DNA from: Clostridium thermobutyricum
GTDB taxonomy: Bacteria; Bacillota; Clostridia; Ch29
Direction: 5' to 3'
Assembly: GCA_016842005.1 (NCBI GenBank)
Contig: JAENYD010000001.1
Span: 102,754 to 166,753, forward strand
DNA length: 64,000 bases
The position numbers were made by a program, and so were the translations under genes. This document shows, piece by piece, positions 1-49,186 of the stretch; within the stretch, counting starts at the first letter, position 1; every line of letters starts with the position of its first letter. The notes beneath the pieces are model-generated. The model was given only the letters and a program-made list of their open reading frames with translations. It was not told where the DNA came from and ran no database searches.

Positions 1-983
1 GTGGCCGTCGCTCCGCCCACCAGTCCCACTGCCATGGGCATTTCGAGTGTTCCTACAAGATTGCCGTCCATGTTTTTTTCCCAGGCAGTCAGTGAAGTAT
101 ACCTGCCAAAACGGGACGCGTATGCATGGGCCCCTGCTTCCACCGCCCTGGTATCGTTGCCTGTGGCCAGCACTACCGCGGTTACCCCGTTCATTATCCC
201 CTTATTATGGGTGGCGGCCCTGTAGGGGTCAGCCTCTGCAAAGGCCCCTGCCATAACTATCCCGTCAACAACCTCTTCCCCGCCTATATCATCCTTTCCA
301 ATCACTGTCCTCGCCCTGACAAGTCTTTTGACCGCAAGGTTGGACAGTATCCTCAGATATACCTTTCCGCCTGTTATCTTTTCTATCATCGGGGCCAGAG
401 CTTCAGCCATGGAATTTACCGCATTGGCCCCCATGGCATCCCTTGTATCCACTATGAGATGGGTTATTACCATTGCCCCCAGCCTGGTATCAATTACCCT
501 CACTTCGATATCTTTCACTCCTCCGCCCAGCCTTACAAGTATGGGGTCCTGACCGTTGGCCAGTTCCATTATCTCTTCCTTGTTTTCAAGGATGGCCATC
601 TTGGCGCCGAAGGGGTCGGCAATATTTACAGCTTGTATCTGGGCTATCATCACCGGTCCCGAATTGCTTGCAAAAATGCCCCCTTTATTCCTGGTGAATC
701 TGGCTGCATGGCTGGCAGCCGCTACCACCGAAGGTTCTTCGGTGGCCATGGGGACAAAGTATTCTTTCCCATTGACCAGAAAGTTGCTTGCCACACCCAG
801 AGGCACTTCAATCTTTCCTATGACATTCTCTATCATTTTGTCTGCCTTTTCTATGCCAAGGGCCCCCGGATTTTTCAGCAGTTCAATATCTTCTTTTTCC
901 AGTCCTGCAAAGTCTTTCACTATCTCCAGTCTTTCATCTATACTCAGCTTGAAAAAACCTGATATGCGCGATGTCTGTGCCAT
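1..983 (-). CDS. mvaA: Hydroxymethylglutaryl-CoA reductase, class II. N-terminal ~327 aa are present; the C-terminus runs off the left window edge.
   Basis: Reverse-strand translation from the ATG at 981-983 (RBS GAGGAGG 7 nt upstream) gives MAQTSRISGFFKLSIDERLEIVKDFAGL...VPMATEEPSVVAAASHAA...DTRDAMGANAVNSMAE...DPYRAATHNKGIMNGV...LEMPMAVGLVGGAT. This is colinear with class II HMG-CoA reductases such as P. mevalonii and Staphylococcus MvaA. It is absent from the ORF track only because it has no stop inside the window. Confidence 0.85.
   Translation of the reverse strand, partial: MAQTSRISGFFKLSIDERLEIVKDFAGLEKEDIELLKNPGALGIEKADKMIENVIGKIEVPLGVASNFLVNGKEYFVPMATEEPSVVAAASHAARFTRNKGGIFASNSGPVMIAQIQAVNIADPFGAKMAILENKEEIMELANGQDPILVRLGGGVKDIEVRVIDTRLGAMVITHLIVDTRDAMGANAVNSMAEALAPMIEKITGGKVYLRILSNLAVKRLVRARTVIGKDDIGGEEVVDGIVMAGAFAEADPYRAATHNKGIMNGVTAVVLATGNDTRAVEAGAHAYASRFGRYTSLTAWEKNMDGNLVGTLEMPMAVGLVGGATA
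126..962 (+). other. Spurious antisense ORF (not a gene)
   Basis: 278-aa + strand ORF rich in H/Y/C/P with no family resemblance. It lies exactly antisense to the well-supported HMG-CoA reductase reading frame. Confidence 0.7.
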
Positions 984-1056
984 AGTACAGTCCTCCTCAA
1001 ACATTCATAAGATATTATAATTCCGGCAGCGCTGCATAAGACCATGACAGATTATA

Positions 1057-1190
1057 AACAGGATTCTTGGCTTCAGGTGGAGTTTTAACCCCATCTGAAG
1101 CTTAGAAACCGCTATCCAGGGACGTAGCGCCGCTTATCTCCCGCCTGAAAGGACGGGAGTATCAGCGGCGGTGGTCATCGGATAAACAGT
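1057..1190 (+). repeat. Copy A of a ~140-nt structured intergenic repeat family (nested GC-rich hairpins)
   Basis: aacaggattcttggcttcaggtggagttttaaccccatctgaagcttagaaaccgctatccagggacgtagcgccgcttatctcccgcctgaaaggacgggagtatcagcggcggtggtcatcgg... About 75-80% identical to the reverse complement of 5225-5363. The first 36 nt also match the reverse complement of 20840-20877. Stems: GCTTCAG/CTGAAGC, CTCCCG/CGGGAG nested inside GCGCCGC/GCGGCG. Confidence 0.6.
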
Positions 1191-1224
1191 CATCCTTTGG
1201 CAGCGCCGCCGGTAGTTTCCCGGT

Positions 1225-2571
1225 TTAGATTACCAGCAGGTTTACCAGCCATCCTGCACAGTAAAGGGTCATGAACTGGACGCCGTAGTTAACGCCCCAT
1301 CGGTTCAATACCCCCGCAACCAGTGCAACCAGAAGAACGCCTCCGATATTTATCAGTCCGGCATCCATAAATGCCAGCATCATAACCAGTCCGAAGAATA
1401 TCCCCAGCAATGCCTCATGGGATATTCTCTCAAAAACGAATTTGCATATCCTTGTTGAATACTTGATTGTTATGGGATAGGTAACCAAAAGAGCAACTGC
1501 CGCTCCCACAACAACCGGCAGGATAAAGTCTCCGCTGTTCAGAATATGATGCATGTTGTTCTCCAGGGAAAATCTTGGGGGAGCATTGAACAGCGCATTG
1601 GCGGGACCCAGCGCCATGGGGCTCAGGGGTATACCCAACGCAATCAGCGGTATAAGAGTCCCCGAAATATAGGTGGCATTGGTAAGGGCATCCATAGTGG
1701 ATATGGCACGGGAAGCCCTCTTCACGGGATCCTTTACCCGGGACGACAGCGTTTCTCCCAGGAATATTGTCATCCCTACAGGACTCATGAAAAATGTAAC
1801 ACAACCCACTATACTGCCTATTACTGAACTGACTATTTCGGATTTTTCGAGTATCTTGAAGGGGTTGGGAAGCCCCTTGTGTCCTCCGTCTTCCCTCAGG
1901 GTAACAGTCTTATAGGAATGTCTGGTAAGGTTCTCTCTGCTGCTCTTTATCATAAGTTCCAGAATGTTTACAATCATGGGCCCTATTGTTATGGCCAGGA
2001 AGAAAGAAATAAATACCACTTTGCCTTCCTGTACCGCTTCCACTCCCCAGTACAGGTGGCGCAGTCCCTGTATAAGCAGGGCCATCGGTACTATACTTAT
2101 AAGGGATATTACCTTTTCCCTGGCCATCAATGCCAGGAATACAGCCCCGAAGAAGAACAGCTGATTGGAATACTGTTTGATGACCGGCGCCAGCGGTACC
2201 AGCGCATTTGCCAGAATCAGGCTCACCGGTACGGCAATCAATGTGCCTATCACAGAACCCGAAGCCATCTTACGTATACTCACATCAGCCTTTCCGTGAG
2301 ATTTCAATATTACGGCATGCTCCACCATGGGTGCTGCCATAACCCCGCCGGGGATACCTGCCACAGCAACCGGTATGGAATCCGTCAGTTTCTTTGCAAC
2401 AATGGCAGCTATAAAAAATGCCAGGATAACAGCAGGATGCATGCCGGTCAGGACCAGCGCCAGGGTGATTGGCGCCAGCACGGCAGTTTCATCAGTTCCC
2501 GGAGCGACCCCGATAAATGTATAAACCACAGATCCAAGCACAGATGCAATTATCATCTGGACTATTAACAC
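1225..2571 (-). CDS. TctA-family (DUF112) transporter large permease. Start uncertain: GTG at 2571 or ATG at 2556.
   Basis: 448-aa polytopic membrane protein with an internally duplicated pattern (G.aPGtdetAvlaPiTLAL...IPGGvmAAPMVEHAV...RKMASGSVIGTLIA; second half GIPLSPMALGPANALF...) typical of TctA/DUF112. It lies directly downstream of a sigma-54 promoter. Confidence 0.55.
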   Translation of the reverse strand: MLIVQMIIASVLGSVVYTFIGVAPGTDETAVLAPITLALVLTGMHPAVILAFFIAAIVAKKLTDSIPVAVAGIPGGVMAAPMVEHAVILKSHGKADVSIRKMASGSVIGTLIAVPVSLILANALVPLAPVIKQYSNQLFFFGAVFLALMAREKVISLISIVPMALLIQGLRHLYWGVEAVQEGKVVFISFFLAITIGPMIVNILELMIKSSRENLTRHSYKTVTLREDGGHKGLPNPFKILEKSEIVSSVIGSIVGCVTFFMSPVGMTIFLGETLSSRVKDPVKRASRAISTMDALTNATYISGTLIPLIALGIPLSPMALGPANALFNAPPRFSLENNMHHILNSGDFILPVVVGAAVALLVTYPITIKYSTRICKFVFERISHEALLGIFFGLVMMLAFMDAGLINIGGVLLVALVAGVLNRWGVNYGVQFMTLYCAGWLVNLLVI

Positions 2572-2573
2572 GC

Positions 2574-2849
2574 CTAATCATTCCCCTCTTCATATATTAA
2601 ATTTCTTTTCGGCTTGAACACAATTGTACAGATAATAAATCCGATTAAAACACCGGCTAACCCGAAAAACAACGGTTTCGGCGGTGTGTCGGGAGCAATT
2701 ATATAACCCCCCAGCGCCCCCGCAGTACAGATTGCAAGCGAATAAAGCAATTCTTTAAAGTTCACATAATCTCCCCATACTTCTGCCGTTACCACCTTTT
2801 CTTCTGCGCCGCCCTTGTCGGCACTGCCAGCAGTTTTATTGTTATCCAT
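2574..2849 (-). CDS. Small 2-TM membrane protein, putative TctB-like small subunit
   Basis: The ORF track starts at 2867, but a perfect RBS AAAGGAGGTG sits 6 nt before the second ATG (MDNNKTAGS...). It has two hydrophobic helices and is adjacent to, and possibly translationally coupled with, the TctA-like gene. Confidence 0.4.
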   Translation of the reverse strand: MDNNKTAGSADKGGAEEKVVTAEVWGDYVNFKELLYSLAICTAGALGGYIIAPDTPPKPLFFGLAGVLIGFIICTIVFKPKRNLIYEEGND

Positions 2850-2896
2850 CGGAACACCTCCTTTCATATTCTGTTTGTCCTGTTATGATATATTCA

Positions 2897-2912
2897 CGCA
2901 ACTTCCGTGCCA
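2897..2912 (-). promoter_or_regulatory. Sigma-54 (RpoN) -24/-12 promoter
   Basis: The reverse complement reads TGGCAC-GGAAG-TTGC, an exact match to the TGGCAC-N5-TTGCW consensus. It lies ~36-50 nt upstream of the small membrane protein ATG (2849) and directly downstream of the sigma-54 activator gene. Confidence 0.6.
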
Positions 2913-2954
2913 TATTGAAATACCTGGTAATAGCGCCCTTCAGGGAGAATAAAA

Positions 2955-3064
2955 AGCTTACAGTTGTATATTTTGTATACAACTGTAAGCTTTTTGCTTT
3001 CTTCTGCCATGTTTCAGGTGTATATCAAGTATACAGAATTTTGGAGTTGTATACTTAGTATACA
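2955..3064. promoter_or_regulatory. Three TGTATA-N5-TATACA inverted repeats: putative enhancer (UAS) sites for the adjacent sigma-54 activator
   Basis: Site 1 at 2965-2981 is embedded in a 37-bp near-perfect palindrome (AGCTTACAGTTGTATA ttttg TATACAACTGTAAGCT, 2955-2991). Site 2 is at 3019-3035 (TGTATAtcaagTATACA) and site 3 at 3048-3064 (TGTATActtagTATACA). Their centres sit ~65, ~120 and ~150 bp upstream of the -24/-12 element. Confidence 0.45.
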
Positions 3065-3066
3065 CA

Positions 3067-4863
3067 TTATTGGATGTTATATTTCTTCAATTTTTCGTAA
3101 AAGGTCCTGCGGCTTATTCCCAGGAGCTCAATGGCCCGGCTTTTATTGTTGTTGCTCATATCAAGGGCTTTTATGATGGCTTCTTTTTCAACATCGCTGA
3201 TAACCTCATCCAGCTTCCTGAAACCTGTCATCCTTTTCTTGATACCTCTGGAATCAGTCTTTTCGGTCTCCCTGAGGTATGAAGGGATTTTATCTTCAGA
3301 TACGATTTCATGGTCTGCAAGGGCAATGGCATGCTCAATCACATTTTTAAGTTCCCTTATATTCCCGGGCCAATCATATTCAAGAAGCAGTTTGAGGCAT
3401 TTATTGGAAAAAAACGCTTTTTTCCCGAATCTCCGGTTGAAATGCTCTGTATAGTACCTTATCAGGGCGAGGATATCTATTTTTCTTTCCCTTAGGGGAG
3501 GCAGATTGATAGCAAAAACATTCAGCCTGTAAAAAAGGTCTTTCCGGAATTTTTTCTGGTTCACCATACTGTACAGGTCTTTACTGGTAGCGGCAATCAC
3601 CCTGACATCCACCCTGAGAACCTCCTCTCCCCCTACCTTTTCAAATTCACCCTCCTGAAGAAACCTTAACAGCTTGGGTTGCATGGAAAGGGGCATATCC
3701 CCGATTTCATCCAGGAAAAGAGTACCTCTATGGGCCAGTTCAATTTTCCCTCTTTTCCCTCCCTTTTTGGCTCCTGTAAAAGCGCCTTCAACATACCCGA
3801 ACAGTTCGCTCTCTATCAGATTCTCAGGCAGGGCGGAACAGTTTATGGCAACAAAATCCCTGTCCCGTCTTCTACTGGCATGGTGTATGGCCTTTGCCAC
3901 AAGTTCCTTCCCAGTTCCGCTTTCTCCCAATATCAGGACACTTGAATCGGTTTTGGCAATACGGGCTGCCACAGCCAGCTCTTCTCTCAGCTTCTTGCTG
4001 TTTCCTATAATCCTGTCAAAAGCCCCGGGCAGTTTTATCTCGCTTTTCAATTCTTTCTCCAGATAGTAGTTTACTACATTCATCTTTTCCAGCTGGTTGG
4101 CCAGCTGCAGGATCTCGGTAATATCGTGAAAGGTAGAAATGGCACCCACTACCCTGTCACCCGTTTTAATGGGATTTATATTTGCAACAATGGTAGTCCC
4201 AAGGCTCTCTATCTTTATGGTCTGTTCGGTAACCGGCTTTCCTGTTTTCAGGACCTGTATTATCCTCGCGTTGGGTTCCACCTCGGAAAGATACTTGTTG
4301 GTTATATGGTGGGGCTTCACATCCAGTATCCGCATGTATGCCTTGTTTGCAAATACCACCTTTGTACTTGCGTCTACGATTACAACCCCCTCCCGAAGAC
4401 AGTCCAGGGATTCTTTTAAATATATATCATTGTTCAAAGAAAACAAACTGCTGTGCTTTTCTCCATAATTAAAGTCTTTGAATTTTCCTTCCATAAACAG
4501 ATTGAAAATATCGTTCCGGGAGATAATGCCTTTCAATCTCCCGCTGCTGTCAACCACATATCCTACCGAACATTTAGGTCTCTCTATAAACTCCTTTACA
4601 ACCTGTCTGTATGTGTATTCCTCTTCAAACTTTATGAAATTGCTGTCTGACAGCAGTTCAAGCCTGATCCCGTCATCTTGAGCTTCAAGCACATCCTTGA
4701 GCCATACCACTCCTACAAGTTTGCACCGCCCTTCTACCAGAGGAATGGATTTAAAATTATGCCCCTTGAATATCTCCACGGCTTTACGGGCTTTTTCGTC
4801 AACGTTCAGATAAATAACTTTTTCGGACATTATACTTTTCGCATTCATGCTGTTTTCCTCCAA
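3067..4863 (-). CDS. Sigma-54-dependent transcriptional activator with CBS pair, PAS, AAA+ sigma-54 interaction and Fis-type HTH domains
   Basis: N-terminal tandem CBS-like region; central AAA+ domain with GESGTGKE Walker A and GAFTGA-type motif (EGAFTGAKK), then ...TLFLDEIGDMPL...VRVIAAT; C-terminal HTH (ELLGISRRTFYEKLKKYNIQ). Confidence 0.85.
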   Translation of the reverse strand: MEENSMNAKSIMSEKVIYLNVDEKARKAVEIFKGHNFKSIPLVEGRCKLVGVVWLKDVLEAQDDGIRLELLSDSNFIKFEEEYTYRQVVKEFIERPKCSVGYVVDSSGRLKGIISRNDIFNLFMEGKFKDFNYGEKHSSLFSLNNDIYLKESLDCLREGVVIVDASTKVVFANKAYMRILDVKPHHITNKYLSEVEPNARIIQVLKTGKPVTEQTIKIESLGTTIVANINPIKTGDRVVGAISTFHDITEILQLANQLEKMNVVNYYLEKELKSEIKLPGAFDRIIGNSKKLREELAVAARIAKTDSSVLILGESGTGKELVAKAIHHASRRRDRDFVAINCSALPENLIESELFGYVEGAFTGAKKGGKRGKIELAHRGTLFLDEIGDMPLSMQPKLLRFLQEGEFEKVGGEEVLRVDVRVIAATSKDLYSMVNQKKFRKDLFYRLNVFAINLPPLRERKIDILALIRYYTEHFNRRFGKKAFFSNKCLKLLLEYDWPGNIRELKNVIEHAIALADHEIVSEDKIPSYLRETEKTDSRGIKKRMTGFRKLDEVISDVEKEAIIKALDMSNNNKSRAIELLGISRRTFYEKLKKYNIQ

Positions 4864-5224: not shown

Positions 5225-5363
5225 GGCTTAGAATTTTGTCCGATGTTACCGCCGTCAATACTTCTGTCCTTTTATGCGGGAGATAGTCGGCGCTACGCCC
5301 CCGGATAACGGATTTCAAGCTTCAGATGGGGTTCAAACCCCGCCTGTAGCTTGAAATCCTGTC
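5225..5363 (-). repeat. Copy B of the structured intergenic repeat family, inverted relative to copy A
   Basis: The reverse complement of 5225-5363 aligns with 1057-1190. Shared blocks: ggtttgaaccccatctgaagctt, gaaatccgttatccgggggcgtagcgccg, ctatctcccgc, gacggcggt, catcgga. Confidence 0.6.
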
Positions 5364-7173: not shown

Positions 7174-8165
7174 TATGATTCACCCCCAGTACTTCCATTC
7201 AAGGGATTCCAACAGCATATCCTATGATTATTATGCATTATTCGGGATTGTGGCTCTTCTTTCTTGCACTGTTCCGTTACGTATTTGCACCGGGGTGCGA
7301 ATCTGCATCCTTTCGGCATATTAAGAGGATCCGGCAGTCCCCCTTCAATAGTGTTCAGCCTGTCACGATCTTTTTCAAGGGTTGGGATTGAATCCAGCAA
7401 TGCCTGGGTATACGGATGAGCAGGTTTCTCAAAAATGGTCTCAATATCTGCTTCCTCCATAATTTTACCCGCATACATTACGCAAACCCTGCTACACATC
7501 TGTGCTACAACCCCCATATCATGGGTGACCAGTAGTATGGAAGTATTAAACTGTCTGTTAATATCCCTTATGAGATCCAGTATTTGAGCCTGTATAGTGA
7601 CATCCAGGGCGGTGGTGGGTTCGTCTGCAATCAGCAACTGAGGATTACACGCTAATGCCATCGCTATCATTACCCTTTGACGCATACCCCCTGAAAACTG
7701 GTGCGGATAGTTATTGATGCGTTTTTCAGGCGAAGGTATATCTACTAGGTCGAGCAGTTCTATAGACTTTTTTAGTGCTTCCCTATTATTCATACCGGTA
7801 TGTATTGAAAATGCTTCTATTAGCTGGTTTCCTATGGTATACACCGGGTTTAACGAGGTCATTGGTTCCTGAAATATCATTGAAATTTGATTTCCTCTTA
7901 TTCTTCTCATCTGCTCATTGGTCTTCTTTAGCAGGTCTTCACCACGGAAAATTATTTCACCGCCCGCTATTTTCCCCGGAGGATTTGGCACCAACTGCAT
8001 TACCGATAAGGAAGTAACACTTTTACCGCTGCCGCTTTCGCCTACCAGGCCTAAAATTTCACCATTTCCAATGCTGAAACTAATACCATCGACCGCCGTA
8101 ACTCTTCCCCTTTCAGTGTTGAATACAGTTGTTAAGTTCTTAACTTCCAAAGTTATATTACTCAT
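7173..8165 (-). CDS. Oligopeptide/dipeptide ABC transporter ATP-binding protein (OppD/DppD type)
   Basis: GESGSGKS, FSGGMRQR, LLIADEPTTALD. The likely true start is MSNITLEV, preceded by RBS AGGAGTG. Its stop overlaps the downstream ATPase gene. Confidence 0.85.
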   Translation of the reverse strand: MSNITLEVKNLTTVFNTERGRVTAVDGISFSIGNGEILGLVGESGSGKSVTSLSVMQLVPNPPGKIAGGEIIFRGEDLLKKTNEQMRRIRGNQISMIFQEPMTSLNPVYTIGNQLIEAFSIHTGMNNREALKKSIELLDLVDIPSPEKRINNYPHQFSGGMRQRVMIAMALACNPQLLIADEPTTALDVTIQAQILDLIRDINRQFNTSILLVTHDMGVVAQMCSRVCVMYAGKIMEEADIETIFEKPAHPYTQALLDSIPTLEKDRDRLNTIEGGLPDPLNMPKGCRFAPRCKYVTEQCKKEEPQSRIMHNNHRICCWNPLNGSTGGES

Positions 8166-8192
8166 AATTATCACTCCTGCCTGCAACATATA

Positions 8193-9119
8193 TCAGTCTT
8201 CCGCATCAAACCGGATTCTGGGATCAAGGTATGAATATGTTAAATCGGTCAATAAATTTACAGCAACGAAGGTTATAGCTAAAATGAATACTACCGCCTG
8301 AACAACGGGATAATCCCTCTGTCCTATTGCAGTTATTACCAATCTGCCGATCCCAGGCCATTCAAAAACACTTTCTGTTACCACCGCACCCCCAAGAAGT
8401 TTCCCGAACTGCAGTCCTACCACGGTAACCAGAGGTATAAGACTATTTTTTAACGCATGCTTGAGTACTACTACCTTTTCCTTTGCTCCCTTTGCACGGG
8501 CAGTTCTCACATAATCCTCGGATAATACTTCCAGTAAACCGGATCTTGTGAGACGACTTATCATCGCAAGGTAGAATGACCCCAGTGCAACCATAGGGAG
8601 TACAAGATGCCTGAAAGTACCGCGGCCTGAAGTAGGGAATAATCCCAATTTTACAGAAAACACAATGACAAGCATTATACCCAGCCAAAATGTCGGCATA
8701 GACTGCAATCCCAAGGCTATTCCCATGGAGGTGTAGTCTGCCAGTGTATTTCTTTTAACTGCCGCAATTATCCCCATAGGAACTGCAAAAATAATAGCGA
8801 ACACCATAGCCGACACTGCAAGTTCAAGAGTTGCGGGAAGTCTTTCGATAGCAATTTGAAAGGCGGGTCTCCTGTGAACCATCGAAAGGCCAAAGTCGCA
8901 TTTTACAGCACCTTTTAAAAACCTGGCGTATTGTATATAGATAGGGTCATCGTATCCGAGGGAATGCCGGAATTCAGCAATCTGCGCATCGGTTGCATCG
9001 GGAGGCAGCAGTAATTGTGCTGGGTCTCCTGAAAGATGCATGATAAAGAATGTCACTACAGAGACCCCTAAAACTACAATAACAGCCTGTGGGAGCTTCC
9101 TTAACAAGTATTGTACCAT
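8193..9119 (-). CDS. ABC transporter permease (DppB/OppB type)
   Basis: N-terminal MVQYLLRKLPQAVIVVLGVSVVTFF... plus an EAA-like loop, typical of DppB. Confidence 0.85.
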   Translation of the reverse strand: MVQYLLRKLPQAVIVVLGVSVVTFFIMHLSGDPAQLLLPPDATDAQIAEFRHSLGYDDPIYIQYARFLKGAVKCDFGLSMVHRRPAFQIAIERLPATLELAVSAMVFAIIFAVPMGIIAAVKRNTLADYTSMGIALGLQSMPTFWLGIMLVIVFSVKLGLFPTSGRGTFRHLVLPMVALGSFYLAMISRLTRSGLLEVLSEDYVRTARAKGAKEKVVVLKHALKNSLIPLVTVVGLQFGKLLGGAVVTESVFEWPGIGRLVITAIGQRDYPVVQAVVFILAITFVAVNLLTDLTYSYLDPRIRFDAED

Positions 9120-9202: not shown

Positions 9203-10738
9203 TTACCGTTTTTCCACGTTGTACATGAATACCATGCCATCAACCGGTGCTTCAAAGTTGACATTTGCCCTGTATGCATAGTAGGCTTCCTGATTGTACA
9301 GGTAACCCCATGCTGCATCGTCATAAAGCAATTTGTGTATTTGCTTATAGATATCTTCACGGGAGCTTTGGTCCATTGTAGACCTTCCTTTATCAAGAAG
9401 CTCGTCAACCTTGGTATTCTTATAGTAGTAACCTCTTGCTTCAGAATGGAAAAGCGAATACAGGTATCTGTCCGGCTCTATTTGCGTGTCCCAGGTAAAC
9501 AGATAAGACTGGAACTCCCTGTTTTTGTAGCGTTGAAATTGAGTGGCGGGGTCTGTTATATCAAGTTCCACTTTAATTCCAACCTCTCCCAGCTGGGCAG
9601 CTATAGCCTGGGCAACATCAAGGGTATTGGTTGTTCCTTCAACCCCCTGGGGTGGGGTAGCCAACCTAAGGGTGAAACCGTCTTCACATCCTGCTTCCTT
9701 AAGCAGTTGCTTTGCCTTTTCCGGATCATAGGGATATGGTTTAATGCTATCATCAAATCCCTTTGTGCATCTGAATACAGGACCGGCCATAGGCCTTGCT
9801 GTACCCAGAAGAATATTCTCAACTATAGCGTCTTTATCAATAGCATAGTTAATTGCTTGCCGTACCTTCACGTTGTCCAGGGGCGCATTAAAGGTATCAA
9901 GTCCCATATAAAGCATCACACCTGTCTTGGCTGAGGTCTTGATATCCGGATTATCCTGCAATTCTTTCAGCCTATTTGGAGGTACCGATGTTATAATATC
10001 GACTTCCCCTGTAGTCAGGGATGCTACACGGGTTGAAGCTTCAGAAATAGGCCTGAAAATAATCTTATCGACTTTCGGTGCTCCCTTCCAGTAGCCTTTA
10101 TTCGCTTTTAGGACGACCTTTTCTCCGGGTACGAATTCCTCAAAGATGAAAGGCCCGGAACCTATGGGATTTTGTCCAAACTCAATATTCCCCATTTCCT
10201 CAACAGCCTTTGGAGGTACAATAAACATTAGTGTCATTATATTAAGAAGTGCTGCATAGGGCTGCTTTGTTTTAATGATTACCGTTTTTGCATCGGGTGC
10301 CTGAACATCTTCGACCAGGCTGAGCCTCCAGGCCTGGGGAGATTTTACCTCAGGGTCCATTATCCTGTCCAGGGAATACTTAACCGCATTGGCATCAACG
10401 GGTTCACCGTTGGTGAATGTAATGCCTTCTCTCAAATGAAATATCCATGTGTTCTTATCCGGGTTCTCCCATGACTCTGCAAGCCATGGTTCGTATTCGT
10501 AATTCTGATTTATCCTTATCAGTGTATCGAAAATGTTATTCGATATGTTTTGAGTCTCGGTCTGAGATGCAAGGGCATAATCAAGGGCTGTGACATCCCT
10601 TGTCTGTGCTATGACAACGACAATCTCTTCGGCTCCACCGCTGCCAGCATTATCATTTTCTGCACTGTTGGAACACGAAGTGAGTAAAGGTACAATACAT
10701 AATGTTAGTACCAGCACTCCAAACAACATTTTTCTCAT
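9203..10738 (-). CDS. ABC transporter substrate-binding lipoprotein, family 5 (DppA/OppA/NikA-like)
   Basis: Lipoprotein signal sequence (LLTSCSNS) and a 511-aa cluster-C solute-binding protein fold. Confidence 0.8.
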   Translation of the reverse strand: MRKMLFGVLVLTLCIVPLLTSCSNSAENDNAGSGGAEEIVVVIAQTRDVTALDYALASQTETQNISNNIFDTLIRINQNYEYEPWLAESWENPDKNTWIFHLREGITFTNGEPVDANAVKYSLDRIMDPEVKSPQAWRLSLVEDVQAPDAKTVIIKTKQPYAALLNIMTLMFIVPPKAVEEMGNIEFGQNPIGSGPFIFEEFVPGEKVVLKANKGYWKGAPKVDKIIFRPISEASTRVASLTTGEVDIITSVPPNRLKELQDNPDIKTSAKTGVMLYMGLDTFNAPLDNVKVRQAINYAIDKDAIVENILLGTARPMAGPVFRCTKGFDDSIKPYPYDPEKAKQLLKEAGCEDGFTLRLATPPQGVEGTTNTLDVAQAIAAQLGEVGIKVELDITDPATQFQRYKNREFQSYLFTWDTQIEPDRYLYSLFHSEARGYYYKNTKVDELLDKGRSTMDQSSREDIYKQIHKLLYDDAAWGYLYNQEAYYAYRANVNFEAPVDGMVFMYNVEKR

Positions 10739-20839: not shown

Positions 20840-20877
20840 GGGGGTCAAAACCCCGCCTGAAGCCAAGAATCCTGTTT
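20840..20877 (-). repeat. Copy C (core only) of the structured intergenic repeat family
   Basis: ggggtcaaaaccccgcctgaagccaagaatcctgttt is ~90% identical to the reverse complement of 1057-1092. It has the same orientation as copy B. Confidence 0.55.
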
Positions 20878-20948
20878 GTACTTTTCCCAAATTCAATGTA
20901 TTTTTATGGTATAATTATACTTAATATTATAAGGACAGGTGTATTACA

Positions 20949-27800: not shown

Positions 27801-29606
27801 TTACTTGAGCGCAAGCTCCTTCAACTTATTATCCTCAGGCACACCTTCACTGTTCCATCCTCTTACCTCATAGTACTCCTTGAGCATTACATCCAGTTCA
27901 ACTACTTTGCCTTTGGCGGGACCCGATGGCAGTGGTTCATTCAGCAGTCTGGGCGGCAGGGTATCATCCGCTTTGGTAAAGCCTGCTTCCAGATTGAACA
28001 GCCTCTCCAGGTTCCATATACGCTCTCCCTTTTGAAGTATTTCTTCATCAGTACAGTCAATGCCCAGGGCTGTCCTCAGCATGGAAGAAATCTCGGGAAG
28101 TCCGAGACCAAAGGTTGTAAAAAGACATATCCCGGCAGAATCTATGACTGCAGTAAGGTCCTGGAAGGTTTTCAGCCAGGATGCCTTGTCGGTTGTTACC
28201 AGGGGATCAAGTTTCTCAGGAACACCCAGAATTTCAGGTGATGTCAGGTATCCTCTTACATGGCAGGCCCCGCGGTTGGATGTCGCATATTCAAGACCCA
28301 TGCCCTGTACGCCCCTTGCATCGTATGCAGGCATCTCCTGTTTCTTGACCGTCATGGACAGTTCAGGGTGCCCGTAACCGGATGCCATCCTGTAAGACCC
28401 TTCCGCCAGTTTGTCTCCAAAGCCTTCCCTCAGACCGGTCATTTTTGTCAGCTCGACAATGGCGTCCGCATCCCCGAATCTCAGTTTCCTGCCCACTTCT
28501 TCTTCCGGGAGAATGCCTTTTTCACTCATTTCCATGGCGCATGCTATTGTAGAACCCATGGTAATCGGGTCAAGTCCCAGCTCATTACAGATGAAATTTG
28601 CCTTGCAGATCGCAGCCAGGTCTTTAACTCCGCAGTCCGCACCATAGGCCCAGCCTGCTTCATATTCAGGTCCTTCCCCAAAACCCTTGAATTTGCCTTC
28701 AGGAACCCTGGTAATCCTTCCGCAGCCTATGGAACATCCGAAACAGCCTTTGTTTCTTACAAGAAATTTTTCAGTCAGCGATTCTCCTCCTGTTTCGTCC
28801 GCATCTTCAAAATAACCGCCATCTCGCCAGTTCCTGGTCGGCAGGGCTCCCGATTGATTCAATATATTCACGAGTACTTCAGTTCCATAGGTAGGAAGCC
28901 CCGTACCCGCTACAGGGTCTTCTTTAAGTTTCCTTCTTGCATCAATGCATTTTTCGAGGAATGCGTCAGGCTCAGCGACCTGTACAGACCTGGACCCTCT
29001 TACAGCTACGGCCTTCAGATTTTTTGACCCCATTACCGCACCAAGGCCCGAACGCCCGGCGGCCCTGTGCTTATCGTTCATTACAGTGGCAAAGAGTACC
29101 AGTTTCTCACCTGCCGGTCCTATGCATGTAACTCTGGCATCCTCCGCCGTTTCTTCCAGCAGCTGGTCTGTGGTTTCAAATACGTTTTTGCCCCACAGGT
29201 GCCTGGCATCCCTCAGTTCTACATGGTCATCGTTTATCCAGAGATAAACAGGTTTTTTAGACTTGCCTTCAAAAATAATACCGTCGTAGCCGGCAAACTT
29301 CAGTTCGGGTCCGAAGTGTCCACCCGAGTTTGAAGCACCTATTGTTCCTGTAAGGGGGGCCTTTGCAATAACTTCATATCTCCCCGCACTTGCCGCAAAT
29401 GTGCCGGTAAGCGGACCCGTCATGAATATGAGTTTGTTGTCAGGGCTGAGGGGGTCAACCCTGGGGTCCACCTCATCCATCATTATTTTTGTACCCAGAC
29501 CTCTTCCTCCTATATATGCCCTGGCATCTTCCATGTTCAAGGCCTCTTTTTTAACAGTGCCTTCGGTCAGGTTTACACGGAGTAAAGTACCGACAAAACC
29601 GAACAT
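27801..29606 (-). CDS. aor: Tungsten-containing aldehyde:ferredoxin oxidoreductase (AOR family)
   Basis: N-terminal [46 protein letters not shown] is the AOR family consensus. 601 aa, full length. Confidence 0.9.
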
Positions 29607-33146: not shown

Positions 33147-33220
33147 TGCGCCCTGAGGGACTCGAACCCCCGACCAACTGATTCGAAGTCAGCGACTCTA
33201 TCCAACTGAGCTAAGGGCGC
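33145..33220 (-). tRNA. tRNA-Arg (anticodon TCG)
   Basis: Reverse complement GCGCCCTTAGCTCAGTTGGATAGAGTCGCTGACTTCGAATCAGTTGGTCGGGGGTTCGAGTCCCTCAGGGCGCACCA. Cloverleaf with encoded CCA. Confidence 0.85.
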
Positions 33221-33229
33221 ATATGAACC

Positions 33230-33303
33230 TGGAGCGGATGAAGGGAATCGAACCCTCGCGACTGGCTTGGAAGGCCAGGGCTCTACCACTGAGCTACACC
33301 CGC
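33230..33303 (-). tRNA. tRNA-Gly (anticodon TCC), copy 1
   Basis: Reverse complement GCGGGTGTAGCTCAGTGGTAGAGCCCTGGCCTTCCAAGCCAGTCGCGAGGGTTCGATTCCCTTCATCCGCTCCA. Confidence 0.85.
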
Positions 33304-33323
33304 ATCATGCCTGAAGAAAATAA

Positions 33324-33401
33324 TGGTGACCCATCCGCGACTCGAACGCGGGACACCCTGATTAAAAGTCAGGTGCTCTACCGACTGAGCTAATGGGCCA
33401 C
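33324..33401 (-). tRNA. tRNA-Lys (anticodon TTT)
   Basis: Reverse complement GTGGCCCATTAGCTCAGTCGGTAGAGCACCTGACTTTTAATCAGGGTGTCCCGCGTTCGAGTCGCGGATGGGTCACCA. Confidence 0.85.
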
Positions 33402-33405
33402 AAGA

Positions 33406-33482
33406 TGGCTGGGGCGGCAGGACTCGAACCTGCGGAATGCCAGAGTCAAAGTCTGGTGCCTTACCGGCTTGGCGACGCCCCA
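33406..33482 (-). tRNA. tRNA-Gln (anticodon TTG)
   Basis: Reverse complement TGGGGCGTCGCCAAGCCGGTAAGGCACCAGACTTTGACTCTGGCATTCCGCAGGTTCGAGTCCTGCCGCCCCAGCCA. It has the U1-A72 pair and the bacterial tRNA-Gln pattern. Confidence 0.85.
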
Positions 33483-33501
33483 AAGAAAACTGATTTGTAG
33501 A

Positions 33502-33579
33502 TGGGGTGGATAGTGGGAATCGAACCCACGACCTCCAGAGCCACAATCTGGCGCTCTAACCAACTGAGCTATACCCACC
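33502..33579 (-). tRNA. tRNA-His (anticodon GTG) with encoded G-1
   Basis: Reverse complement GGTGGGTATAGCTCAGTTGGTTAGAGCGCCAGATTGTGGCTCTGGAGGTCGTGGGTTCGATTCCCACTATCCACCCCA. The extra 5' G pairs with discriminator C73. Confidence 0.85.
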
Positions 33580-33603
33580 ATATTAACATTATATTAAGAT
33601 AAA

Positions 33604-33680
33604 TGGTGCGCCTGCAGGGACTCGAACCCCGGGCACACGGATTAGAAGTCCGTTGCTCTATCCACCTGAGCTACAGGCGC
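33604..33680 (-). tRNA. tRNA-Arg (anticodon TCT)
   Basis: Reverse complement GCGCCTGTAGCTCAGGTGGATAGAGCAACGGACTTCTAATCCGTGTGCCCGGGGTTCGAGTCCCTGCAGGCGCACCA. Confidence 0.85.
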
Positions 33681-33688
33681 ATGTAACA

Positions 33689-33762
33689 TGGAGCGGGTGA
33701 AGGGAATCGAACCCTCGCGACTGGCTTGGAAGGCCAGGGCTCTACCACTGAGCTACACCCGC
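33689..33762 (-). tRNA. tRNA-Gly (anticodon TCC), copy 2 (one substitution relative to copy 1)
   Basis: Reverse complement GCGGGTGTAGCTCAGTGGTAGAGCCCTGGCCTTCCAAGCCAGTCGCGAGGGTTCGATTCCCTTCACCCGCTCCA. Confidence 0.85.
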
Positions 33763-44777: not shown

Positions 44778-47700
44778 CTAATACCTGCTCACCGCCGTTT
44801 TCATGAGAGCCTCCAACATAATATCTATTTCTTCTACTGTTAGACCAACATCATGTTCATCAATAAAATCCCAAATCAAATCATCAAGGGCTTGCTCCAT
44901 GTCTTTATGCACAGCTACATTATGACGCCAGTCTACTTTTGCTCGATCGGCAATGGCCTTCTTTATTTCTATGGCCAATTGTCCCATAGCTTCTTCTAAT
45001 TCCGGCGAAATATCCCTTATCGCCCTGGAAACAACATCCTGAACAGATCCATAAAAAGCTTTTGCATCACTATCGTTATCTATACAGGTCGGGTAATGAT
45101 GACCGGTATAACCCCTTTTAAAATCCTCTGCTATTCTTTCCATATTTGACAAATAGGAAGCATCGTTCCTAGACGCTTTGTATTCAGCAAGAGTTTCTCT
45201 TACTTGCTCAGAAAATTTCTTGTATAGTAACGGATCATCATAACGATATGTTTCCAATTCTCCTACCATACGGGTACGGATGGCATCCCCCTTTGCAGAT
45301 TTGCTTTCCAACATTTCCAACTGCTTCTTCATATCTTCAGTGTTGTGTATAGAAACGGGTTCCACAACGATTTGACTGGGTTCGGAGAGCACAAAATTAT
45401 TTAATAGACTTCTAATACCATCTTCATATTTACTGAAATCTACTTTCTCATAGTATCGAAGCAAAACCGCCCCTCGCAGTTTCTGAAAGTGGAGTAGATC
45501 CTTTTTGTATTCTTGAATCTGTTCATATCCTATAGAATTATACAGAGCATAGCTTCCCATAGCCAAATCCAAAAGGCGTGAGTAGATTGAAAGCTTTTCA
45601 TAAAATTTCTTTCTTATATCATCGTCCGCTAATACGCTTTGCCAACCTTCAGAATTATTTCGGTCAAACTCCTTCCCTTCGAATATTGCCCACAGTTCCT
45701 GATATGCATTTTTTAGCTTGAGCTTTTGGTCTTCTGCCCCAAGGATAGCGTTCTTAATGTCTTCCGTATCATACCCATCCATTCCGGATTTTGTATCAGA
45801 ATACATATCCATGGCAGTATTCAGTTTGCCAAAGATACCCCAATAATCCACAATAAGGCCAAAATCTTTGCCCGGGTATACCCGATTTACGCGGGCAATG
45901 GCCTGCAATAATGAATGCTCCTTCATTGGTTTGTCCACATATATCACAGCAGCAACAGGTGCATCAAAGCCGGTTAGCAGTTTATCCTTTACGATAAGCA
46001 TTTCCACATCTTCACCGCCAACAAAGCTATTCTTTGCCCAATCGTCATATTTCTCATAATTGTTCCCGAAAAGTGGTTCCACCTCTTCTTTAAAGAATGT
46101 CTTTATCTTCTCTTTACTTTCGCTGGTAAGTTCGTCCCCTTCTTTAACATCTTCGGGCGATATTACCACCGCCGTCTTAATACCGCCAAGCCTCTTTAAC
46201 GACTTATGAAGCTCAATAGCGGCGGGGCGGGATGAGGCTGCTACCATAGCCTTAAAACCCTTTGGCTTGGCATAACTGATAAAGTGTTCGTGAATATCAA
46301 AAGCTACCATATCTATACGCTGTCGTGTTTGAGCCAACGGCAAAAAACGACTCCATTTCCTCTTCATGTCCTCCTGTTCACTGGGCTTCAATGGTGCAAT
46401 GATGTATTTAAGATAATCATCAATCTTATCACTCGTCACATCTTGCGGAATTATCCTGCCTTCGTAGACAAGTGGAACAATGACACCATCTTTCACCGCC
46501 TTATCTATAGGATAACTATCAATAAGCGGACCAAACCTCGCGTAGGTATTAAACTTATCTTTCTTAAGCAAAGGAGTACCGGTGAAACCTATTTTAGTCG
46601 CATTGGGTAGTACATCAACCATAAAATTGTGAAGTTGTCCCGATTGTGTCCTATGGCTTTCATCCACTAGTAAAAAAATATTGTCATCCTTAATCCTGAC
46701 TCTGGTTTTTGCCGCTGTATCAAATTTATGCACAAGGGTAGTAATAACAATTTCTCCTTTATCCTTCAAGAGACCAATTAACCCTTTACCTGTCTTGGCT
46801 CGGCTCGGACTCATCTGTGCCTTTACGAAATTATCTCTAAGTTGCTTATCTAAATTGATACGGTCGCTGACAAGCACAAAGCGGGGATTCTTGATATCGG
46901 GATCCGATATTATTTTCTTTACCAGCATCACCATGGTAAGGGATTTACCGCTGCCCTGCGTATGCCAGATTACACCGTTTTTCGTATTCTTTCCATCTTC
47001 GCCTTTTATACGTTTCATAGCTTTCTGTATGCCAAAGAACTGCTGATAACGGGCAATTTTTTTTACATTATTATCATACAGAATGAAATAACGAATAATC
47101 TCCAGTAACCTCTCCCTAGAAAGCATTGATACAATAGTTCTATCCTGTTCAACTATTTTTCCATCAGGACTAACATTGCCGCATTTTTCTTGCTGCCATT
47201 TATAATCCTTTTCCCTCCATATACTGAAGTGCTCGAAAAGCGTTCCGCAGGTCCCATATTTAACGATATTGGGGTTCATCGCCATTACGATTTGGACGAA
47301 TTTAAAAAGATGGGGGATATAATCAGGCTGCCAGTTACGTATGTTTTGTGTTACACCTTCATCCACATTTATACCGGATTTTTTACATTCAATCACCACT
47401 ATTGGAATACCGTTTATAAGTAGCACAATATCAGGCCGTGTATATTTTCCATTAGACCTTTCAACCGAAAATTCGTCTGTAACCTGCCATATATTGTTCT
47501 CCGGATGTTCCCAATCAATGAACTTCAAGTCAAAGGACTGACGCCCTCCGTCAAACAGTTCTTCTTCATAGCTGCTGCCGGAAATTAACATATCATAAAC
47601 AGTCTTGCTTGCCGACATCAGGCCTGAGACAAGCGGTACATCAATATCATTTATTGCCTTACCTATAGAGCGGTCAGAGAAAGGGGTTTGCTTTCCTCTG

Positions 47701-47885
47701 TAAAAGAAGGACTGGCGCTGCAGAAATTCACGCAGAACGTCAGTAAAAATTACGTTTGAAAGTCGGCCACGCAGGATTTCCGCCTGTGAACGTGGAACAT
47801 ACTGATACCCTAGTTTTTCCAGCACTTTTATCGCCCTGTCCTGGCTCTCCGGACGTTCATTGAACATAGTATGGTCTGGCATCAA
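44778..47885 (-). CDS. hsdR: Type I restriction enzyme R subunit
   Basis: 1035 aa. Helicase motifs TQGSGKSLTM (I) and LLVDESHRTQSG (II). N-terminal nuclease region. Confidence 0.9.
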   Translation of the reverse strand: MMPDHTMFNERPESQDRAIKVLEKLGYQYVPRSQAEILRGRLSNVIFTDVLREFLQRQSFFYRGKQTPFSDRSIGKAINDIDVPLVSGLMSASKTVYDMLISGSSYEEELFDGGRQSFDLKFIDWEHPENNIWQVTDEFSVERSNGKYTRPDIVLLINGIPIVVIECKKSGINVDEGVTQNIRNWQPDYIPHLFKFVQIVMAMNPNIVKYGTCGTLFEHFSIWREKDYKWQQEKCGNVSPDGKIVEQDRTIVSMLSRERLLEIIRYFILYDNNVKKIARYQQFFGIQKAMKRIKGEDGKNTKNGVIWHTQGSGKSLTMVMLVKKIISDPDIKNPRFVLVSDRINLDKQLRDNFVKAQMSPSRAKTGKGLIGLLKDKGEIVITTLVHKFDTAAKTRVRIKDDNIFLLVDESHRTQSGQLHNFMVDVLPNATKIGFTGTPLLKKDKFNTYARFGPLIDSYPIDKAVKDGVIVPLVYEGRIIPQDVTSDKIDDYLKYIIAPLKPSEQEDMKRKWSRFLPLAQTRQRIDMVAFDIHEHFISYAKPKGFKAMVAASSRPAAIELHKSLKRLGGIKTAVVISPEDVKEGDELTSESKEKIKTFFKEEVEPLFGNNYEKYDDWAKNSFVGGEDVEMLIVKDKLLTGFDAPVAAVIYVDKPMKEHSLLQAIARVNRVYPGKDFGLIVDYWGIFGKLNTAMDMYSDTKSGMDGYDTEDIKNAILGAEDQKLKLKNAYQELWAIFEGKEFDRNNSEGWQSVLADDDIRKKFYEKLSIYSRLLDLAMGSYALYNSIGYEQIQEYKKDLLHFQKLRGAVLLRYYEKVDFSKYEDGIRSLLNNFVLSEPSQIVVEPVSIHNTEDMKKQLEMLESKSAKGDAIRTRMVGELETYRYDDPLLYKKFSEQVRETLAEYKASRNDASYLSNMERIAEDFKRGYTGHHYPTCIDNDSDAKAFYGSVQDVVSRAIRDISPELEEAMGQLAIEIKKAIADRAKVDWRHNVAVHKDMEQALDDLIWDFIDEHDVGLTVEEIDIMLEALMKTAVSRY

Positions 47886-49186
47886 GACACCCCCTGTTCT
47901 CTGACTCTTACTATTCCTGTTAGCAATAATTGCATCAGGGCTTTCTTCTGCCTTTTTAACTCCTCAAGCTGCTTTTCATGCAGGTTAATTTCGCGGTCTG
48001 CGGTGGAGAGGATTTCTGCAATGGCAGTTTGCTCAGATATAGTGGGCAACTTAACAGAAATTTTAGTAAGGCTAGCCCTCGATAGATTAAACCTTATTGC
48101 TCCTTGAGCCAACATGTAAAGAATCTTTCTGAAAGCTAACCCTCTAAAATAATAGCATGCAAATTCAGGTAATAAAGTATTGAAATCATTCAATCTGAAG
48201 CCCATACAAAAACTATTCAGATATACCTCATCTATATCACCAAGATAAACGGCAGACATCCCCACTTCATTCTGAGTTTCAGAAGAAGTTGTGAAAAATA
48301 TATCCCCATAACGGACTTTGTTCTGTTTTTCATTATCCAGAATATTTACAAGCTCCAACTTCCTTACATCAATTACAGGGTTTTCATAAATATTATTGTA
48401 CGGAATATAATACTTCCCATATCCGAAATCTTCTTTGCTTTTCCCGCTTAGACCAGCATAGGTATGCCCTATATCTCCTAATCTAATCTCCTTCCATTTA
48501 CCTGTAAATCCAGGAAGACGTTTTCTGCCTGTAAGCAGGTTCTGCATCAGCCATTTTTTCTGTTGCTTTTTCTCTGCAATTAGCCGCTCTTTCAATTTAA
48601 TGGCTTTGTCCCATATAGACAAAACTCCTGCAATTTTCTTCTGCTCGGATATAGGAGGCATATGAACCCAAAGATTCATAAAAGATTTTTTACTCATAAC
48701 CCTGTTCCTTCCTGCTCCGCCCGGCGATATATCTGATAACATCTTTTTAAAATATGGCTGAATCACATAATACTTATAAAAATTTGGACAGGCATTTTCC
48801 CTGAATACATAGGTTGGAAACCTATGTGATACCAATTTGCCCGCATCGTTTTTATCTGCCAGTGCTATTGCGTGTTCCCACGCGAATGTGATATTAACAA
48901 CCAGATCCTTTTCGGCAACTAAGAATAACTCCTCCATGGCAACAGTATCCGGGTCATCTATAAACTCATGGAATGTTCCCTTTGCATGACTTCTAAGCCC
49001 CAAGCGCCAGTAACCTTTCTTAGGCTTAGGCACTTTTCTTTCTACATGGTCAAGTATATAGTTTAGTTGTTTTACATCCCAATCCTTAGGGTTAATACCT
49101 GCTTTTGTTTTTTTATACCCCTCAGGCACCACACCTTTTCTTATCTGCTCTATACGTTCCCTTATCTCAGGCTTCAATTTTTTCAC
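47882..49186 (-). CDS. hsdS: Type I restriction-modification specificity subunit (two TRDs)
   Basis: Two target-recognition domains separated by, and ending with, conserved coiled-coil regions (ISEQKKIAGVLSIWDKAIKLKERLIAEKK...; ISEQTAIAEILSTADREINLHEKQLEELKRQKKALMQ). Confidence 0.85.
   Translation of the reverse strand: MKKLKPEIRERIEQIRKGVVPEGYKKTKAGINPKDWDVKQLNYILDHVERKVPKPKKGYWRLGLRSHAKGTFHEFIDDPDTVAMEELFLVAEKDLVVNITFAWEHAIALADKNDAGKLVSHRFPTYVFRENACPNFYKYYVIQPYFKKMLSDISPGGAGRNRVMSKKSFMNLWVHMPPISEQKKIAGVLSIWDKAIKLKERLIAEKKQQKKWLMQNLLTGRKRLPGFTGKWKEIRLGDIGHTYAGLSGKSKEDFGYGKYYIPYNNIYENPVIDVRKLELVNILDNEKQNKVRYGDIFFTTSSETQNEVGMSAVYLGDIDEVYLNSFCMGFRLNDFNTLLPEFACYYFRGLAFRKILYMLAQGAIRFNLSRASLTKISVKLPTISEQTAIAEILSTADREINLHEKQLEELKRQKKALMQLLLTGIVRVREQGVS

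Follow-up and report, generated by a model that had tools for sequence, protein, structure and literature searches.

Control region of a putative sigma-54-dependent, activator-gated operon for mevalonate uptake and catabolism in Clostridium thermobutyricum

A 64,000-nucleotide (nt) stretch of DNA from Clostridium thermobutyricum (contig JAENYD010000001.1, positions 102,754 to 166,753; this whole stretch is called the window, and positions are counted from its first letter) carries, near its left end and on the minus strand, a gene for a sigma-54 enhancer-binding activator followed by genes for a small membrane protein, a permease of the TctA family, and a 3-hydroxy-3-methylglutaryl coenzyme A (HMG-CoA) reductase. 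The locus raises two questions: how the operon that follows the activator gene is switched on, and what its permease carries. An earlier note, made from the sequence of the window alone, had recognized the layout of an activator, its operators, a promoter, and a target operon. The present analysis covered the features of the sequence, how well they are conserved, whether they occur together with the activator gene, and which genes surround the operon. Taken together, we consider it likely that the region between the activator and small-protein genes controls an operon for the uptake and catabolism of mevalonate that depends on sigma-54 and is gated by the activator.

For comparison, contigs of close permease relatives were combined with a metagenome scan, which gave 91 related loci (numbered with the prefix L), or 73 nonredundant loci after clustering at 95% nucleotide identity. 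Relatives of the permease number more than one thousand and are 47 to 80% identical across the Firmicutes. An activator with CBS and PAS domains is encoded beside the operon in the window and in six nonredundant loci (L169, L170, L081/082, L089, L083-085, and L171).

Promoter, palindromes, and activator

The minus strand at 2898-2912 reads TGGCACggaagTTGC, an exact match to the sigma-54 (-24/-12) promoter consensus TGGCAC-N5-TTGC and the only exact match in the 64 kb. The GG and GC doublets are ten bases apart, and the promoter is co-oriented with the operon. The earlier note had the right sequence and placed it at 2897-2912, one base off. The 3' end of the promoter lies 48 nt 5' of the ATG of the small-protein gene (2849-2847), which is served by the ribosome-binding site AAAGGAGGTG (2855-2864, minus strand), with its GGAGG ending 7 nt ahead of the ATG. 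The start codon and ribosome-binding site were thus found downstream of the promoter, as had been noted earlier. No ribosome-binding site precedes a second in-frame ATG, at 2867, and the orthologues favor 2849. From the usual spacing to the -12 element, transcription is predicted to start near 2886, which would leave a leader of about 37 nt. In shuffles of the window, whose GC content is 45%, 0.10 exact matches to the -24/-12 pattern were expected and at least one arose in 9 of 100 shuffles; with one mismatch allowed, 5 matches were found in the window compared to 3.6 expected. The lone match is therefore not significant by itself, and the weight of the promoter lies in its position and conservation rather than in its count.

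Upstream of this promoter, the sequence TGTATA-N5-TATACA occurs three times without a mismatch. There is no further site with up to one mismatch in the 64 kb; only 0.12 such palindromes were expected, and none of 100 shuffles reached three. All three sites are exact at the centers that the earlier note had listed. The proximal site, UAS1 (TGTATATTTTGTATACA, 2965-2981, center 2973; minus strand 2981-2965, TGTATACAAAATATACA), is centered 74.5 bp from the GC of the -12 element. The middle site, UAS2 (TGTATATCAAGTATACA, 3019-3035, center 3027; minus strand 3035-3019, TGTATACTTGATATACA), and the distal site, UAS3 (TGTATACTTAGTATACA, 3048-3064, center 3056; minus strand 3064-3048, TGTATACTAAGTATACA), follow at 128.5 and 157.5 bp, respectively, and the first base of UAS3 is 2 nt past the stop codon of the activator gene. 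The three 17-mers have the features of the TGT-N10-12-ACA class of activator sites, that is, TGT and ACA ends and several copies about 70 to 250 bp upstream of a promoter.

The gene from which these sites follow (3067-4848, minus strand; ATG at 4848, stop codon at 3069-3067, GGAGG 8 nt upstream of the ATG) encodes a protein of 593 amino acids (aa). The earlier reading of this protein as a sigma-54 activator whose sensory part is a CBS pair plus PAS was borne out. Pfam assigned two CBS domains, PAS_9, the AAA+ domain Sigma54_activat (PF00158, 239 bits), AAA_lid_14, and the helix-turn-helix (HTH) domain HTH_8 (52 bits), and the translation holds the GAFTGA loop, the Walker A sequence GESGTGKE, and the Walker B sequence FLDEIG. 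Orthologous activators carry GAFTGA, GAFSGA, or GAFTGS at the loop. The activators of the six other CBS-PAS loci are 45 to 58% identical to that of the window, and the C-terminal HTH (NKSRAIELLGISRRTFYKKLKEYNI) is nearly invariant. PrdR is the activator of the proline reductase genes. Against the NCBIfam model for PrdR (NF041552), the window protein gave a full-length match of 529 bits; since the curated cutoff is 795 bits, it was classed as a PrdR-type paralogue and not as PrdR itself. When the activator was used in a genome scan, 80 loci were recovered, all of them paralogues, and the permease, small protein, and reductase were near none of them.

Pfam found no receiver domain in the activator, which is a one-component sensor and not a response regulator of the NtrC type. 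This bears on the suggestion in the earlier note that uptake might be nitrogen gated. A nitrogen-regulated circuit following the NtrC paradigm has in its favor only that sigma-54 has historically been linked to nitrogen control, and nothing at the locus ties the circuit to nitrogen. Besides the missing receiver domain, the CBS/PAS architecture is nearest to that of PrdR and the target genes belong to carbon catabolism; in addition, the sigma-54 regulons of Clostridiales have been reconstructed as systems for fermentation and amino acid catabolism with substrate-specific activators (PMC6615313). Nitrogen control of the operon is therefore extremely improbable.

UAS1 lies within a perfect palindrome of 45 bp (2951-2995, minus strand; two arms of 20 bp with 100% complementarity around 5 bp) that is flanked by A5 and T5. 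The earlier note had seen the palindrome and put its length at 37 bp. As RNA from the minus strand, the palindrome folds into a 20-bp stem (-29.7 kcal/mol, z = -7.7) that is followed by UUUUUAUU. It thus has the form of an intrinsic terminator for the activator gene, which would shield the sigma-54 promoter from read-through. A terminator scan also picked up the palindrome, calling it on the plus strand, and Rfam returned no family for the hairpin, only chance microRNA-like matches. In L081 (9598-9618), L089 (5544-5572), and L169 (1934-1973), too, the activator gene is closed by a hairpin that contains the proximal site and leads into a U-run. The palindrome therefore reads as one sequence with two jobs, ending the activator transcript and, as duplex DNA, serving as the proximal activator site. 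In L083, a hairpin at 8152-8200 likewise carries the palindrome at the end of the activator gene, yet a convergent gene and not a promoter comes next; the activator could there also act at its own 3' end, as an autoregulatory roadblock.

These hairpins raise the possibility that the palindromes have nothing to do with the activator, the 45-bp palindrome being a terminator only and the other two sites being either chance occurrences in AT-rich DNA or targets of some other regulator, for example the GntR/FCD protein whose gene lies upstream. Indeed, nothing that marks an intrinsic terminator is missing from the long palindrome, and the orthologous activator genes end in hairpins of the same kind, in L083 without a following promoter. 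However, the TGTATAC/GTATACA core is kept across lineages in which the intergenic sequence has otherwise diverged, whereas ordinary terminator stems normally drift, which argues for more than a terminator in the 45-bp palindrome. Moreover, no T-run follows UAS2 or UAS3, clusters of sites occur only where a CBS-PAS activator gene is present, the distance to the -12 element is conserved, and conservation at the orthologous loci does not extend to the GntR/FCD gene. TGT-N11-ACA is also a known class of site for an HTH of this kind (PMC6615313). We regard this alternative as quite unlikely and consider it highly probable, judging from the sequence, that the palindromes are the binding sites of the adjacent activator.

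Conservation of the control region

All seven CBS-PAS loci, the window included, carry TGGCA[CT]-N5-[TA]TGC 39 to 54 nt ahead of the ATG of the small-protein gene. When nine promoters of orthologous loci were aligned, only TGGCA-N6-tTGCa was kept and the flanks had diverged. Six of the seven loci have between two and four sites that match TGTATA-N5-TATACA with no more than one mismatch. The center of the proximal site and the -12 GC are 74.5 bp apart in the window and in L089 and 73.5 bp apart in L081 and L083; in L169 (82.5 bp) and L170 (93.5 bp), the distance is off by roughly one and two helical turns, respectively. The window and L169 share the same spacings between sites (54 and 29 bp), and L170 has the spacing of 54 bp as well.

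The pattern is confined to loci with the activator. In the 1.7 Mb that the fetched loci comprise, neither an exact palindrome nor a cluster of sites was found outside these intergenic regions, against a background of eleven scattered singletons with one mismatch. The strict promoter pattern was present upstream of the operon at every locus with an adjacent activator gene and at none of the approximately 80 loci without one. The layout of activator, operators, promoter, and target that the earlier note had drawn from a single locus thus recurred in the orthologous loci, with the same promoter and palindromes at conserved spacing.

The same comparison bears on whether sigma-54 is needed at all. 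If the operon were transcribed from a sigma-A promoter, or if transcripts of the activator gene ran on into it, the -24/-12 match would be fortuitous. A weak sigma-70-like match, ATGGCA-17-TATCAT (9 of 12 positions), does overlap the promoter, and, as given above, an exact -24/-12 match arises per 64 kb in 9% of shuffles. However, sigma-70-like matches in the region are at chance level (11 found, 8.4 expected), the hairpin with its U-run should block read-through, and the -24/-12 elements are the sole bases conserved in the nine orthologous promoters and occur only beside activator genes. We consider a fortuitous match very improbable. Control of the operon by sigma-54 and the activator, as predicted from these conserved elements, is the part of our reading in which we are most confident.

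Variants of the arrangement were found in other loci. L083 has a second sigma-54 promoter (TGGCACattttTTGCA, approximately 9386-9403) on the opposite strand, ahead of a divergent HMG-CoA lyase gene and next to the same palindrome region, and one enhancer region appears to serve two promoters there. In L086, from Pseudalkalibacillus, the activator has PAS without the CBS pair and is 45% identical to the window protein from PAS onward; it is accompanied by the sigma-54 promoter TGGCACgtttcTTGC and by the sites TGTTTC-N5-GAAACA and TGTATC-N5-GAAACA, which have the same 6-5-6 geometry. Since PAS is also present in this CBS-less activator, it is the better candidate for the sensor of the pathway signal. 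Finally, in L099, L100, L104, L110, and L112, an operon for small protein, permease, and reductase adjoins a divergent gene for a MocR-type regulator (GntR HTH plus aminotransferase fold). Control by sigma-54 is therefore one of several solutions found in different lineages.

Gene neighborhoods and the substrate of the permease

What the operon is for was approached through its products and their neighbors. The small membrane protein (2574-2849, minus strand) has 91 aa and two predicted helices, and its stop codon lies 2 nt ahead of the start of the permease gene. It has no Pfam or NCBIfam family. Eight orthologues of 80 to 91 aa share two hydrophobic segments and the motifs EVW-D, APxxPPKPL, and KPKR, and in most of the 91 related loci the small protein is encoded directly upstream of the permease, as judged by tblastn. 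The earlier label of this protein as TctB-like did not hold: canonical TctB has four helices, and none of the eight orthologues matched TctB (PF07331) even at an E value of up to 10, the only matches being noise (TauE and BrkB). The permease (1225-2571, minus strand; 448 aa) matches TctA (PF01970) over residues 8-428 with 96.1 bits against a cutoff of 28.9. TctC was absent from the Pfam matches of the neighbor genes in eleven annotated loci and from those of eight window proteins. The earlier note was thus right that a TctC binding protein is missing; it had called this atypical, and it proved to be a trait of the whole subfamily. No solved structure was found to be a sequence relative of the permease.

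The HMG-CoA reductase gene (1-983, minus strand) continues past the left end of the window, which holds its first 327 codons. A sequence within it, TGGCACAGACATCGC at 968-982, was considered as a second promoter and dismissed, as it consists of codons 1 to 6 of the reductase. The enzyme is of class II, the degradative type. The fragment is 81% identical to its L169 orthologue. Among solved structures, it comes closest to 6dio and to 1qax, the enzyme of Pseudomonas mevalonii, both with E values of about 1e-112 (8e-112 for 1qax). Its matches to chains 5wpj, 3qae, and 7m3h, biosynthetic enzymes of Gram-positive cocci, had E values of 1e-76 to 1e-64. The L081 orthologue scored 466 bits on TIGR00532 (cutoff, 260).

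In close relatives, the gene order is small protein, permease, HMG-CoA reductase, and an HMG-CoA lyase-like gene. The lyase-like gene stands behind or faces the operon in L081, L083, L089, L169, L170, and L171. L171 adds two CoA-transferase subunits, and a thiolase gene and another lyase-like gene share the transcript of the activator there; with the CoA-transferase and thiolase genes, the route to three acetyl-CoA is complete. No HMG-CoA synthase gene was found in the annotated orthologous loci. In more-distant relatives (47 to 66% identical), the permease gene directly precedes genes for mevalonate kinase, diphosphomevalonate decarboxylase, phosphomevalonate kinase, and type 2 isopentenyl diphosphate isomerase (IDI2). 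Such a placement of the pair ahead of lower-mevalonate-pathway genes was found in Niallia circulans (L087/L088, 7756-13630) and in about 30 metagenome loci, and it looks like a mevalonate salvage operon.

Among the 73 nonredundant loci, 20 have HMG-CoA reductase as a neighbor (nine of them also with the lyase within reach), 32 have lower-mevalonate-pathway genes, 9 have neither despite good flanks, and 12 have flanks too short to judge. The pair of small protein and permease thus adjoins genes for mevalonate-using enzymes in 52 of the 61 loci with usable flanks. Some of the exceptions are stand-alone; in L091 (7412-8710) and L092 (7501-8859), a gene for an alpha/beta hydrolase of 430 to 450 aa lies downstream of the pair, and this enzyme could be a lactonase for mevalonolactone. 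Because mevalonate is the sole metabolite common to both enzyme sets, the pair is a strong candidate for a mevalonate importer, and mevalonate is, with fair confidence, the predicted substrate of the permease. The earlier note had called the link to the reductase speculative and had suggested an organic acid resembling HMG or mevalonate. The link was strengthened by the conserved synteny with reductase and lyase and by the distant permeases in lower-mevalonate operons, and these operons point to mevalonate and away from HMG. Of all aspects of the proposed function, this link has the firmest support.

A different cargo was weighed against this assignment. The circuit could be real and the permease could carry another organic acid, such as 3-hydroxy-3-methylglutarate, acetoacetate, citrate, or another tricarboxylate, with only an indirect link to mevalonate. 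The permease does belong to the TctA family, whose characterized members take tricarboxylates and other carboxylates, and nine loci have no mevalonate gene nearby. L155 and L156 carry a family III CoA-transferase that could activate free HMG. However, the two enzyme sets, reductase plus lyase and kinase plus lower pathway, are unrelated and share mevalonate alone, so that uptake of HMG or acetoacetate would leave the kinase operons unexplained. The permease also bears only a modest likeness to the Pfam TctA profile (96 bits), and both TctB and TctC are missing. Transport of another acid is unlikely, and mevalonate is the preferred substrate.

On a broader scale, we think it reasonably likely that the pair is an offshoot of the tripartite tricarboxylate transporter (TTT) family that works independently of a binding protein and constitutes a bacterial mevalonate importer widespread in the Firmicutes. 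It would feed either degradation, under sigma-54/CBS-PAS or MocR control, or the salvage of external mevalonate for isoprenoid synthesis, and the activator would be a switch responsive to mevalonate or HMG-CoA. No gene for a bacterial mevalonate transporter is named in the searchable literature, which leaves most subscription journals out of reach, so that prior work is possible. Searches of the same literature for mevalonate together with TctA or tripartite tricarboxylate transporters, and for mvaA/mvaB operons, gave no prior assignment; the one co-occurrence with TctA that was inspected was a primer sequence.

The gap between the permease and reductase genes is where the window departs from its relatives. 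It holds a structured insert of 241 nt (984-1224, minus strand; folding energy, -99.6 kcal/mol; z = -6.25) for which Rfam has no family and which lies outside the conserved circuit. The insert is a copy of a dispersed intergenic repeat, parts of which recur between genes at two more places in the window (near 5237-5340 and 20841-20900), and two of the repeat copies end in a TATAAT box about 30 to 35 nt ahead of a start codon. The orthologous loci have a gap of only about 40 to 50 nt and no insert. The insert may terminate transcription or may supply a TATAAT promoter of its own for the reductase gene.

Several observations weigh against the reading of the locus as a sigma-54-controlled operon for mevalonate uptake and catabolism. 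The promoter match is statistically weak when counted alone, as described above, and no RpoN box was found in a six-frame translation of the window, so that there is no rpoN gene in the 64 kb. L171 has kept the promoter and has only a single degenerate palindrome with two mismatches. Because the 241-nt repeat sits between permease and reductase genes, cotranscription of the reductase is uncertain in the window. The lyase gene is not visible there, its expected place lying beyond the left end, and the orthologous lyases, whose best NCBIfam match is HMG-CoA lyase, scored 232 and 155 bits, just below the cutoff of 246. The assignment of the substrate draws on gene neighborhood only, and the nine loci with good flanks and neither enzyme set run counter to it. 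An AlphaFold model of the permease from an 18-sequence alignment added nothing (pLDDT, 61; best Foldseek hit against the PDB with a TM score of 0.22 and an E value above 0.1).

The LigA sequence from the window is at most 80% identical to any recorded one and about 60% identical to those of Mahella, Caldicoprobacter, and Thermoanaerobacterium. Elsewhere in the window, a molybdenum/tungsten cofactor riboswitch (RF01055; 30275-30384, minus strand; 39.4 bits against a gathering threshold of 36) lies upstream of, and on the same strand as, a region with an open reading frame (ORF) resembling aldehyde:ferredoxin oxidoreductase (27801-29606). Seven tRNA genes are clustered at 33147-33762 on the minus strand, and a type I restriction-modification system occupies 44778-51627 on the minus strand (hsdR, 44778-47885; hsdM, 50035-51627), with an ORF of 434 aa between the two genes.

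Proposed operation and relation to known systems

Under the mechanism that we propose, the activator, a one-component enhancer-binding protein of the PrdR type, would be made from its own transcript, which would stop at the 45-bp hairpin. Activator dimers would bind the three palindromes, which are centered about 87, 141, and 170 bp ahead of the predicted transcription start. With the sensory module active, an AAA+ ring would form and reach, by DNA looping, the closed complex of RNA polymerase and sigma-54 on TGGCAC-N5-TTGC, and ATP hydrolysis and the GAFTGA loop would open the promoter. The resulting transcript would encode the two-helix small subunit and the TctA-family permease, without a periplasmic binding protein, and probably the HMG-CoA reductase as well. 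The permease pair would then act in the predicted direction, importing mevalonate, which the reductase would oxidize (mevalonate + CoA + 2 NAD+ -> HMG-CoA), and a lyase encoded past the window edge would split HMG-CoA into acetoacetate and acetyl-CoA. The likely signal would be mevalonate or a pathway intermediate at the PAS domain; that PAS senses mevalonate itself is a tentative suggestion, and an adenylate or a CoA-type ligand may act as an additional input through the CBS pair.

The regulatory design is a known one. In the reconstruction of clostridial sigma-54 regulons (Nie, Dong and Yang 2019, PMC6615313), TGT-N10-12-ACA sites were assigned to 15 of the 39 activator groups, the majority of the activators govern one operon next to their gene, and the majority of the operons carry several sites. 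The window agrees with these regulons in having an activator gene beside a single target operon, several TGT-N10-12-ACA-type sites, and a TTGGCA-N6-TTGC promoter; among the AdhR sites of that study is the similar TGTATAAGAAATATACA. The motifs themselves differ from those of PrdR, whose sites are TGTC-N7-8-GACA of 15 to 16 nt, compared to TGTATA-N5-TATACA in the window. The geometry also differs, since the proximal site lies about 74 bp from the promoter and doubles as a terminator stem, whereas 100 to 250 bp is typical in that study. HMG-CoA reductase, mevalonate, and TctA appear in none of its 39 groups, nor do they appear in a cross-phylum survey of 2025 (PMC12316311). The locus therefore adds an activator group with its own DNA motif and geometry to the clostridial sigma-54 regulons, with PrdR as its closest named relative.

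Like the TGT-N10-ACA sites of NifA- and FhlA-type activators, the window sites have inverted TGT...ACA half-sites and lie in multiple copies upstream of a -24/-12 promoter, with a Fis-type HTH and presumed DNA looping; they differ in the 11-nt spacer, in the extended TGTATA arms, and in the input through a CBS pair plus PAS instead of GAF. No IHF-type (integration host factor) site was noticed in the region, and no dedicated search for one was run.

The enzymatic part is also paralleled elsewhere. Pseudomonas mevalonii grows on mevalonate by the reaction given above, according to a statement in PMC13412983 that cites Gill, Beach and Rodwell 1985. Its mvaAB operon encodes an NAD-dependent HMG-CoA reductase and a lyase, and the window resembles it in the class II type of the reductase and in the pairing of reductase and lyase-like genes at orthologous loci. 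Unlike mvaAB, the window operon belongs to an anaerobic member of the Clostridia and not to a pseudomonad, is predicted to be under the control of sigma-54 and an enhancer-binding protein, includes a dedicated two-subunit permease, and has no lyase visible in the window. The placement of the operon beside a dedicated activator gene suggests that its expression is induced. With the TctABC systems of the TTT family, the operon shares a TctA-family large subunit and a small-protein gene just upstream, with stop and start codons adjacent or overlapping. It departs from them in having no TctC gene in the annotated loci, a two-helix small protein that is not TctB, and a predicted monocarboxylate substrate, mevalonate.

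Compared to the regulation, it is the assignment of the permease that is newer. Mevalonate uptake by bacteria is known, and, if the assignment is correct, it would fill a gap by supplying a gene for this uptake. The pair would then be an importer for use in isoprenoid production that is fed with mevalonate or based on consortia, and the activator, promoter, and operators would provide a candidate mevalonate-sensing set for biosensors. For the organisms themselves, it would mean that anaerobic Firmicutes degrade or salvage mevalonate from their environment.

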